From positions 1,993 through 65,992 of the forward strand of contig JBIKWF010000002.1 in the NCBI GenBank assembly GCA_044356455.1: DNA of 64,000 nucleotides, given 5' to 3'. This stretch comes from Bdellovibrionota bacterium (GTDB lineage Bacteria; Bdellovibrionota_C; UBA2361; JBGSMV01). Position numbers: made by a program. Positions 30,001 through 33,000 of the stretch are shown piece by piece (the first letter of the stretch is position 1; each line of letters begins with the position of its first letter).

Positions 30001-33000
30001 GGCGATGTACCCCACCTCAAGAGTCGGAGGATTTCGCCCCCTCCCACCTGGTCAAGAATGTGCGGTCGTGTTTCCCATCTCATTTCTAGATGAAGAAAGC
30101 TCTCCGCCGAACGACGGACCAGCATCCCTGCTCATGGATCCATTCACTTTTGAGCAGCAATTCGCGGCCATGATAGCGGGTGATTACGAGGGGCCACTCG
30201 CTGAGGATATTCAGCATCGCGCGCACGCCAGCTTAGGGTCTGGTCCGCGCAAACCAGAGCTTGTCTCAATCGAACGTGTGTTTCCGCCTTGTGGGCACCC
30301 AGGAGACTATAGCTTTCTCGCCACAACTTCCCACGGCGAGCGATTCTTTGGGCGACTCTCCGAAAGTAGCATGACACACGTGTGGATGATTCGAGAGTTC
30401 GTACATTATCAATTCGGCATATACGGCCACAAGGCCGGGTTCTCGGGAGCAGAGGGCATAGATCACGGTCTCGTCAAGGGAACTGCGAGGCACTTTGAGA
30501 GCGACGGGTTCGAATCAACCATATTGGAAGAGGACTCAATTGTCCGAGATTATCTAGGGCAAGTGCAGCGAAACTTTGAGAACTCTACCCAAGGCAGCTT
30601 TGCCTCTAAGGGGTGGAGCATATCAGGAAAACTCCTCGGTTTTGATAAAACGCAACAAGCCCCAATGTGGTTGTTGTTATGCAGTATCAGCGATAAGGAG
30701 GGCCGCTACCTACTGCCCTCGACAACGAGTTGCCGAGTGCTGCGTAGCCAAGAATTCGCCGGTTTTGTTGTTTCGATCTACCCCAACAGCACTCGCCACC
30801 ATCCTGGCGGAACACGTGAGTTTCTTGAACTTCGAGCTTTTATACTTCCCGAAGAGACTACGGAGCTTGCAATCACCGAACTTGCGCTTAGACCTAAGGA
30901 AGCACTTCTTTCGGAACCACTGCGGCGGCGCGTCGTTCGCGACTTGCTCGATCGTCAATTGCTCTCAAAGAAAAAGTCCCGCAAGTTTGAGTTAGATAAA
31001 ATTGGGACTGCTTTCTGCGGCAGTGACGGATCGGACGATTTTTATGCCGTCTGCTGCAAACATCGCCTCGGTGAAACCATCCTCGTTTTGAGGCGGAAGC
31101 TGTCGAGCGGGGGAATTCTGCACGGGGATGATTATACGATTTGGGGCTTTGCACCCAAGAGAAATTGCAGCGTCCCCCAGTGGTAGAAAGAGCCGTGCTG
31201 CCAACGGCTAATTTTCCGGGAGCAGATTCGTAAACGGCTGTAGGGAAGAAAGGTTGCCAGTACAATAGGATTCAACCATAGGACCAAGTTCTGAATCGAC
31301 ATAATCCTGCATTGCTCCATAGTAGGAATTCTGCAGCGCCGCGGACTCAGCTCCCCAAATCGCTACATGCTGAGCACCAAGCATCATCGGATAAATGAGT
31401 TGCAGAAATAGCTCTGGTTTCCTAACCAACGTATAACGCTCCGAGGGGTCTGCGGAGTTATGATATCTTGGCCAGGCATACGCCATTACGGGCTTGCCCC
31501 CCGCGAGCGTAGCGAGTCGCTGCGCCTCTGTTATGTTTTCATAAACATACTGACGATTACGCTCGAACCATTGAATTCCATTGGGAGGCGCACCACCACC
31601 AGGAGGCATAGCGAGAGGGTTCCCCAACTCGTCCACCGCGCTACTGTAGAACTGATAAATGCTCGCAACCACCATGCCGGCTTCTTGGTGTAGTTGGAGA
31701 ATTCTATCATTTATCGCCCTATGGGCTGGGCCATATGAGGAAGCGTAGCCATCCCAGTAGTGCCTCATGACCACATCATAAAAGCCGACTTTCGCACGTG
31801 GCCGAACTTGTTGAATCACGCGTTGCGTCTCTAGATAAAACTCGAGGCCTTTCTCCTCCCACTGCAGTCGTGCCTCGGCTAACGCCTCATCATCGCTCAG
31901 TTCGGGGTGCATGAGCTTCACGTCCGCTACGGCTCTGTCGCGATACAAGCTGCTATTGAGTTCCCACTGCGCCCACCAGATCTCCCAATCGGGAACGAGA
32001 TAACCGTCAAAGTTTGGGTCTGGAATAAAATTCTGAATGTCGCGGGCTAAATTGCTTTTGTGAAGTTCTAGATTACCGTTAATCGGAGTTCCGCCATTGA
32101 CGATGAGCTTCTCCCCCTCATCGACATAGGGAATTTGTAGCCAGTCTAATTTTGAGCGTTGCTGCTGCGTATCATTCACTATCTGAGGAAGGGCGCCATT
32201 CCACCCAAGGTTAACTACATGAGCACGGTTTTCTCTGAGGTGAGACGCCGCGGTTAGGGAAAGCGCTGGCATATCTTGACTCGTGTACACCTGCCACAAA
32301 AGCTTGTCGCCGGCGCAGTTCTCTATAGGAGTAGGCGTCGGGGTAGGAGTCGGGGTAGGAGTCGGGGTAGGAGTAGAAGTTGGCGTCGCGGTAAAGGTGG
32401 GCGTTGGAGACGAAATCGGGGCTTGGGGCGGAGTGGCTTCTGGAGTCGGTGTGGCGGCAGGCTGCCCTTGGCACTGCTGAACCACAATCTTTGCAGCGGC
32501 GAGCGCACGTTTTTGAGAGCGGCTCGCGCTCTTCATTGCCTCGTTAATTTTTTTTATTACGCGTCGCCGCGCGGTGGGTTTAAAGTTTTTTCCCTGCCTG
32601 AGGTGAAGTCCCTTTTCGCCAAGCGCGCAGTAAAGCCGTCCGCCAACAAGACGTTCAACTCGGGCTCCAATCTCGAGACGAGTGGGACTAATGAGGGATG
32701 GAGAGGCAAAGGCCCGGCGCGTCTCGCCGCCCCAGAAAACTGTCGCCAGGACAATAAAAAATGAGATTAGCTTCGATGAATTCACAGAAAACATGTCCCC
32801 CGGCCTTAACGTTCCCGTGCGTCTATCCAAGCGCGGAGAGAAATATTTCTCCTAAGAAAAACTTGGATCTGGTGACCAAACTGTTGAAATCACGCGAGCA
32901 CGGGGGCGTCTTTCCTCTTAGACCTGTGCATGTGCACGATTCATGCCGCGAAAAAGCTTGCCAATTTGAAGGCGCGTTACCAGGGAAAGGGGGGACGCAA

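Follow-up and report, generated by a model that had tools for sequence, protein, structure and literature searches.

Glycoside hydrolase family 56 (GH56) was formerly regarded as animal-specific, and was later detected in 12 or more of 21 choanoflagellates by Richter et al. (10.1101/211789) as putative 'GAG hydrolases'; the available part of their text mentions no prokaryotic homologue. According to a 2019 survey, hyaluronidase was gained during the evolution of metazoans (PMC6940844), the listed characterised members cut hyaluronan or chondroitin (PMC7793863), and the 29 characterised GH56 enzymes in ez-CAZy are all single-domain (PMC12229491). In the accessible sections of a 2024 review (PMC11669647), GH56 was assigned to mammals and venoms and no microbial GH56 was listed; the microbial hyaluronan enzymes given there belong to PL8, PL16, PL29, PL33, PL35, GH84 and GH88, while GH16 is fungal, so that the previous statement that bacterial hyaluronan-degrading enzymes are lyases or GH16/GH84 hydrolases needs correction for GH16. 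These PL, GH84 and GH88 enzymes are bacterial and act on HexNAc-uronate polymers, but their families are unrelated to GH56. The remark that GH56 turns up in CAZy counts of bacterial bins was supported by metagenome-assembled genomes (MAGs) of the Acidobacteria family UBA6911, for which a GH56 expansion was reported in the genus QHZH01 (bioRxiv 2021.04.09.439258); the counting was automated and its result was taken to reflect nutrient use, and the available text contains no analysis of residues, structure, phylogeny or gene context. Literature searches, with most subscription journals outside their scope, retrieved no characterised or analysed prokaryotic GH56 protein, and CAZy may already list bacterial entries. 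The accessible text of PMC11315327 held nothing on GH56 substrates, and the 'GH56' of 10.64898/2026.07.27.740809 was discarded as the name of an isolate. The protein described here (P0001) belongs to this family.

P0001 is encoded in the window, the 64,000-nucleotide stretch of Bdellovibrionota contig JBIKWF010000002.1 that was analysed, and comprises in order a likely signal peptide, a basic module bounded by Cys56 and Cys108, a Pro/Thr-rich linker and a catalytic barrel (Table 1). The survey's finding of a secreted bacterial GH56 protein with intact catalytic residues was borne out, Pfam, PDB sequences, Foldseek and VIA-align being in agreement and the signal peptide being recognised by eye; the module between signal peptide and linker had been omitted from that description. 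A G-rich, ribosome-binding-site-like stretch lies upstream of the ATG, and a second possible start, a TTG, was seen at 32830.

Table 1. Positions of the GH56 gene, its parts and its surroundings within the window.
Feature	Coordinates	Strand	Basis
Variable slot from kup to the ctaA-like gene, with the GH56 gene and two orphan ORFs	29485..34420	.	Genome comparison
Convergent orphan ORF, 499 aa	29687..31186	+	No Pfam match, no Atlas match
GH56 gene (P0001), 528-aa secreted glycoside hydrolase	31208..32794	-	ORF call, internal stops 0, Pfam
GH56 catalytic barrel, residues 159-528	31208..32320	-	AlphaFold2 model, Foldseek, VIA-align
W480 (HYAL1 W321)	31355..31357	-	PDB sequence alignment; invariant in 54 rows
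Y380 (HYAL1 Y247)	31655..31657	-	PDB sequence alignment, 54-row alignment
Y339 (HYAL1 Y202)	31778..31780	-	PDB sequence alignment
D269-x-E271 (HYAL1 D129/E131)	31982..31990	-	PDB alignment, motif; both invariant
Pro/Thr-rich linker	32327..32461	-	Sequence
Basic Cys56-Cys108 module, predicted helical hairpin	32471..32629	-	Residues 30-110 pI 11.5
Likely Sec signal peptide, residues 1-30	32705..32794	-	By eye: hydrophobic core, A-x-A cleavage site
Divergent orphan ORF, 373 aa, low complexity	33157..34278	+	No Pfam match

The Pfam profile PF01630 (Glyco_hydro_56) matched P0001 with an E-value of 7.8e-30 and 104.4 bits (curated cut-off 23.2), and both stretches reported previously were recovered, the best at residues 222-380 and the second at 411-509. 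No other family was detected in the Pfam scan at E<=0.01, GH18, GH20 and GH84 included, and none of 14 control genomes matched the Glyco_hydro_56 profile. A search of PDB sequences gave four matches below E 0.001, all of them GH56 enzymes (HYAL1, PH-20, and the bee and wasp hyaluronidases). The AlphaFold2 model of residues 159-528, obtained from a 54-row alignment, reached a pLDDT of 96.4 and a pTM of 0.93, and reproduced the occupation of Foldseek ranks 1-6 by GH56 enzymes (E 1.5e-18 to 5.5e-17, next match 1.6e-5). Among the 48,161 chains compared by VIA-align, wasp Ves v 2 (2atm) aligned over 301 residues with Z 31.0 and rmsd 2.6, and PH-20 (9jub) scored Z 25.9, against Z 14.2 for the best other family. 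These results confirmed that P0001 is a genuine GH56 member, which shares with HYAL1 (2pe4), PH-20 (9jub), bee hyaluronidase (1fcq/1fcu) and Ves v 2 (2atm) the PF01630 domain, the distorted (beta/alpha) barrel, the D-x-E motif, and the two tyrosines and the tryptophan of the active site. When the catalytic domain was searched, 769 relatives reached E<=0.001 and 11 of them <=1e-30, and one close relative was 66% identical over that domain; the count of 11 agreed with the previous figure, while 1,048 relatives and 57% identity had been given for the other two, small differences that are attributable to the different query (the catalytic domain).

The HYAL1 residue numbers used here were taken from the PDB alignment, as chain index plus 19. 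In HYAL1, E131 is catalytic, and D129, Y202, Y247 and W321 position the substrate (PMC13080975). These five residues were complete in P0001 and in 11 of 12 rows of its own clade, as well as in 15/16 animal-clade and 32/36 Planctomycetota rows. The assignment of D269 and E271 as the catalytic pair was upheld by the motif and the PDB alignment, and both were invariant in the 54 rows; the five invariant columns counted before in a 30-row alignment were reduced to four in the larger one (D269, E271, P332 and W480). From these residues, P0001 would be expected to perform retaining, substrate-assisted beta-HexNAc hydrolysis, the mechanism described for GH56 (PMC12254123): by homology, E271 would protonate the glycosidic oxygen, the 2-acetamido group of the substrate, positioned by D269 and Y380, would attack the anomeric carbon, and Y339 and W480 would line the -1 pocket.

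An Arg and a Lys of the plus subsites hold the carboxylates of hyaluronan (snake Arg115 and Lys125, equivalent to HYAL1 R134 and K144; PMC13080975). The R134 site is occupied by W274 in P0001, by W, F, M or S in its own clade and by Arg in 11 of 16 animal-clade rows, and the K144 site aligned with a Ser, suggesting that the two basic residues that grip hyaluronan are missing from P0001. The site of R265 is N420, with Asn in 12/12 own-clade rows; since Arg was found in just 7/16 animal-clade rows, this loss is weakly informative. Conserved in all 12 own-clade rows, R443-Y444-H445 could provide an alternative contact for an acidic sugar. A Stephanoeca protein (P0063) among the matches likewise has Asn in place of R265 and carries the R-Y-H motif; choanoflagellate GH56 proteins are, like P0001, non-animal, but eukaryotic. 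The four cysteine columns of animal enzymes were filled in 11-16 of the 16 animal-clade rows and in none of the 12 own-clade or the planctomycete rows, and P0001 thus appears to lack the two disulfides of the animal catalytic domain; its barrel carries instead a Cys160/Cys511 pair typical of its own bacterial clade. The catalytic domain of P0001 is acidic (net charge -15, pI 5.0; animal medians +1 and 7.8). P0001 therefore differs from animal GH56 (EC 3.2.1.35) in its bacterial origin, its own cysteine pair, the replaced R134 and R265 sites and its acidity, and from the 29 characterised, single-domain enzymes in its additional N-terminal module and linker.

P0001 could still be a true hyaluronidase or chondroitinase acting on the glycosaminoglycans of lake animals or protists, a reading that we consider possible but rather doubtful. 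The complete -1 subsite and the substrates of the characterised members agree with it, as does the fact that choanoflagellates, which carry GH56, produce chondroitin sulfate (10.1101/211789), whereas the replacement of R134 by W274 and of K144 by Ser, together with the acidic domain, argue against it. The acidic barrel and the aromatic W274 would in turn fit a neutral ligand, so that P0001 may cut neutral beta-HexNAc (chitin oligomers, a PNAG-like polymer or glycoprotein glycans) or serve mainly as a glycan-binding surface protein; the D-x-E substrate-assisted chemistry is common to GH18 chitinases (PMC13080975). Both versions appear unlikely: the best GH18 structure matched the model in Foldseek at E 2e-4, compared with 1e-18 for GH56, no chitin-binding module was found by Pfam, and the fully intact catalytic residues speak against a role in binding only.

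GH56 was found to be spread over several prokaryotic groups, including Phycisphaerales, DPANN archaea and Saccharibacteria. A scan of named genomes with one alignment (A4) detected 28 loci, in Planctomycetota (n = 22), Saccharibacteria (n = 2), Bacteroidota (n = 2), Woesearchaeota (n = 1) and Paceibacterota (n = 1), a taxonomic breadth that is a lower bound because A4 favours planctomycete- and archaeon-like motifs. Five of these 28 loci (L031, L032, L034, L035 and L036) were not counted as GH56, since they matched in the C-terminal half only and had no D-x-E match. In Phycisphaerales, 25 of 151 genomes (a count that includes the seed genome and the unpublished G233) were above the GH56 Pfam cut-off, several of them with tandem copies, and the same was true of 2/201 genomes of an archaeal order (DPANN). 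One planctomycete is described as having no GH56 in the accessible part of PMC5352709. The term 'animal-type' applied to P0001 was thus an overstatement, given these groups, the choanoflagellates (10.1101/211789) and the clustering of P0001 with bacteria.

In the 113 neighbour ORFs of the GH56 relatives, Wzy_C, GT4, AsnB-type amidotransferase and sulfotransferase genes were recurrent. A Wzy-like gene was present in 13 of 33 Planctomycetota loci, and at least one of the four types (Wzy, GT4, AsnB-type or sulfotransferase) in 21/33, counts in which locus L051 duplicates L022 and for which the profiles were derived from those very loci. A search for Wzy_C with comparison of coordinates, covering 24 of the 25 GH56-positive Phycisphaerales genomes, located a match within 5 kb of GH56 in 16/24, usually at about 1.2 kb and often head to head. 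With 88 Wzy_C matches spread over some 82 Mb, about 0.3 genomes would be expected by chance; 11 of the 16 linked matches were below the Pfam cut-off and the genomes are kin. Hydrolases of the PslG, PelA, BcsZ and AlgL type, which belong to other CAZy families, are encoded in exopolysaccharide operons, and the Phycisphaerales GH56 loci resemble them in that the cutting enzyme is encoded next to the genes that build the polymer it would cut. The gene of P0001, unlike these, is outside any such operon: no wzy or glycosyltransferase gene was detected among the ORFs scanned around it, and the three Wzy_C matches of its genome are all on other contigs. Genome G054 carries two GH56 copies, neither of them beside Wzy, with a GT2 gene about 4 kb from one. 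The frequent position of prokaryotic GH56 genes beside polysaccharide-synthesis genes suggests microbial polysaccharides, over animal hyaluronan, as the substrate, which also counts against P0001 as a hyaluronidase.

We infer that P0001 is a Sec-exported, probably surface-held GH56 endo-beta-N-acetylhexosaminidase whose substrate is a HexNAc-containing capsule or exopolysaccharide of microbes, a reading to which we assign a probability of roughly 0.55. The polysaccharide that it cuts would be made by the cell itself, by neighbours or by prey, and the purpose would be remodelling or access, not food. Use of the glycan as food by the host is unlikely: no PL8, GH20, UxaC (uronate isomerase) or NagA was found in the genome, an absence that falls short of proof at 93% completeness, GH88 was detected only below its cut-off, and the one PF01182 match could be NagB or 6-phosphogluconolactonase. 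That no route for uronate or HexNAc was detected likewise disfavours a hyaluronidase. A polysaccharide-utilisation locus was considered and rejected, as the 19 ORFs scanned around the gene included no sugar transporter or catabolic enzyme. The label 'hyaluronidase' was accordingly put in doubt by the altered R134 and K144 sites, the acidic domain, the failure to detect a catabolic route and the Wzy loci, evidence that, read from the residues and gene order, leans to a substrate other than hyaluronan. Against our preferred reading, the Wzy link was observed in Phycisphaerales, and the gene of P0001 lies alone between two orphans.

Trees were built with FastTree (172 rows) and with a quick LG+G4 run of IQ-TREE on 52 of those rows. 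The animal rows fell on one side (support 87), three of them being named (dragonfly, fish and mussel) and the others assigned by grouping. P0001 was placed off that side, inside a bacterial group (support 85; inner sets 99), and the Phycisphaerales GH56 rows formed a separate side (97). The nearest relatives of P0001 are bacterial and 37-66% identical to it, while its identity to the animal-clade rows is about 26%. The sister of its clade consisted of unnamed eukaryote-like rows (SH-aLRT 93), a point in favour of activity on glycosaminoglycans. An AU test did not reject the joining of the own clade with the animals (p 0.158), on groups named after the tree had been viewed and a weak backbone. 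The position of P0001 among bacterial relatives indicates that there was no recent import from animals; old transfers may have run in either direction, including from a eukaryote to a bacterium.

The AU result would also agree with P0001 being an assembly contaminant or the product of a recent animal transfer, as would its patchy presence, with strong GH56 matches in 2/124 genomes of the phylum (and a third, weak match in another), and its position in a variable slot: kup and the ctaA-like gene are adjacent in genome G002 and have other genes between them in G001. Both origins are nevertheless very improbable. The codon usage (percentile 0.30) and GC3 (percentile 0.47) of the gene are native, and the tetranucleotides of the 137-kb contig, which carries bacterial housekeeping genes, are typical (r 0.994). 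The 24 listed sequencing runs that contain the gene are all lake-water metagenomes, with no RNA runs among them; in four other lake runs, none flagged as a possible source, the gene and its flanks were recovered at similar depth, mostly 2-6. Its 5' end was bridged by two contigs among those listed, and no bridge by 31 letters was seen at the 3' junction among the contig pieces listed (366 more pieces exist). Contamination, already judged unlikely by the survey, and recent animal transfer were rejected on the native composition and codon use, these four runs, the lineage-typical N-terminal module, the absence of all four animal cysteines (0/4) and the bacterial nearest relatives. Neither flanking orphan ORF was found in the 4/4 family relatives searched, no evidence of a functional link of either to the GH56 gene was seen, no flanking insertion repeats were seen around the gene, and promoter and terminator scans at the locus were at chance level. 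The host lineage is uncultured. Among at least 120 relatives of its MnmE, six bear a taxon label (Oligoflexia 2, Deltaproteobacteria 2 and Proteobacteria 2), in keeping with a Bdellovibrionota-like placement.

A broader scenario, to be held only tentatively, is that GH56 is an ancient family of prokaryotes whose endo-hexosaminidases cut capsules and exopolysaccharides. They would act on Wzy-tied, partly sulfated glycans in Phycisphaerales and as surface enzymes in host-associated or predatory lineages (DPANN, Saccharibacteria and the Bdellovibrionota-like group), and eukaryotes would have taken the family up once or more, the animal hyaluronidases being one derived branch. Bacteria with GH56 may synthesise glycosaminoglycan-like polymers, and P0001 may strip such coats off other cells while held at the surface by its undescribed module. 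The single gene is less special than had been claimed, and the prokaryotic branch and its link to polysaccharide loci are more interesting: with a broad branch whose catalytic residues are intact, ideas on where hyaluronidases arose can be tested, the Wzy loci point to bacterial polysaccharides that GH56 can cleave, and prokaryotic enzymes without the animal disulfides may be simpler to produce for use in glycan analysis, if any acts on glycosaminoglycans. Domain additions among the 54 rows were FlgD/CHU_C (n = 3) and LamG (n = 2).

A hydrophobic N-terminal leader was also present in close relatives of P0001. The model of the module following it had a pLDDT of 62 overall and of about 75-92 in the helices of the hairpin, and no Pfam match or usable Atlas match was obtained. 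A composition rule used to detect copies picked out 14 of the genome's 816 signal-bearing ORFs (shuffles: mean 1.1, max 4) and 14 of the 1795 ORFs that lack a signal; a Pro/Thr stretch after the module was present in 9/14 signal-bearing carriers, compared with 1/454 in the background. In a leave-one-out assessment, 9 of 17 modules beat all but <=1 of 200 shuffles, the fixed cysteines biasing this test, and an HMM of six close N-termini retrieved no further copy. The module is common to P0001 and about 13 other secreted proteins of the genome. It probably tethers the enzyme at the cell surface, where it would anchor on an anionic surface with the linker spacing the barrel off it. The cargo of 12 other carriers matched unrelated DUF1800, DUF1588/1592, beta-helix, NHL or Ig domains in six cases (E 0.001), only a weak Med26 in one and nothing in five. 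The module was also found in one G054 enzyme and one G044 protein, and the linker of P0001 varies in lake populations, with an in-frame 12-nt deletion at 32337 in 3/4 runs.

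The Cys-(basic helical hairpin)-Cys module of the GH56 protein was found in about 14 secreted proteins of the source genome, with unrelated cargo and usually with a Pro/Thr linker on its C-terminal side, and was also present in genomes G054 and G044 of the comparison. It had no match in the Pfam or Atlas searches, and may be a lineage-specific tag for surface sorting.

Features of the GH56 gene and its surroundings (window coordinates)
Feature	Position	Strand	Remarks
Cys-(basic helical hairpin)-Cys module of the GH56 protein	32471-32629	(-)	After the signal peptide; further copies at loci L038-L049
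Convergent orphan ORF	29687-31186	(+)	Same variable slot as the GH56 gene
Divergent orphan ORF	33157-34278	(+)	Same variable slot as the GH56 gene
High-copy repeat	35436-35870		Upstream of the ctaA-like gene; from depth and genome matches

Neither of the two orphan ORFs had a Pfam match, and no relative of either was detected in four genomes of the family. Relative to the window, lake populations diverged by about 1-4% across positions 28000-30700 (kup and the convergent orphan), whereas almost no differences were observed over 31400-34300 (the GH56 gene together with the divergent orphan). A sweep could explain this contrast, as could a recombined tract. The high-copy repeat reached a depth of 85-465, against 2-6, and the first 30 codons of its ORF had 78 matches in the genome.

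Two divergent GH56 genes, both stand-alone, were present in G054, a genome of the same order (L003 889-2385 and L005 1426-2919; 30% and 44% identity to the window gene). Phycisphaerales GH56 genes adjoined Wzy-like, GT4, AsnB-type and sulfotransferase genes (L014, L017, L019, L023, L025, L026, L028, L029, L055 and L057-L059, as well as genomes searched for Wzy_C), and some of these loci held tandem arrays of 2-3 copies. Wzy/glycosyltransferase loci also enclosed the two Bacteroidota copies of a more distant group (L031, L032, L034, L035, L036 and L008), which matched the GH56 profile over its C-terminal half only, showed no match to the D-x-E motif and may constitute a sister family.

The archaeal and archaeal-looking GH56 proteins (L010 4977-6596, L063 1474-3396; P0022, P0067, P0073 and P0141) start with a short leader, basic and then hydrophobic, presumably resembling class III (pilin-type) signal peptides. 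Outside animals, eukaryote-like GH56 sequences (P0063; unnamed rows such as P0019, P0053, P0065 and P0077) fell into no fewer than two or three distinct groups, one of them including a choanoflagellate, and this separation hints at several transfers.
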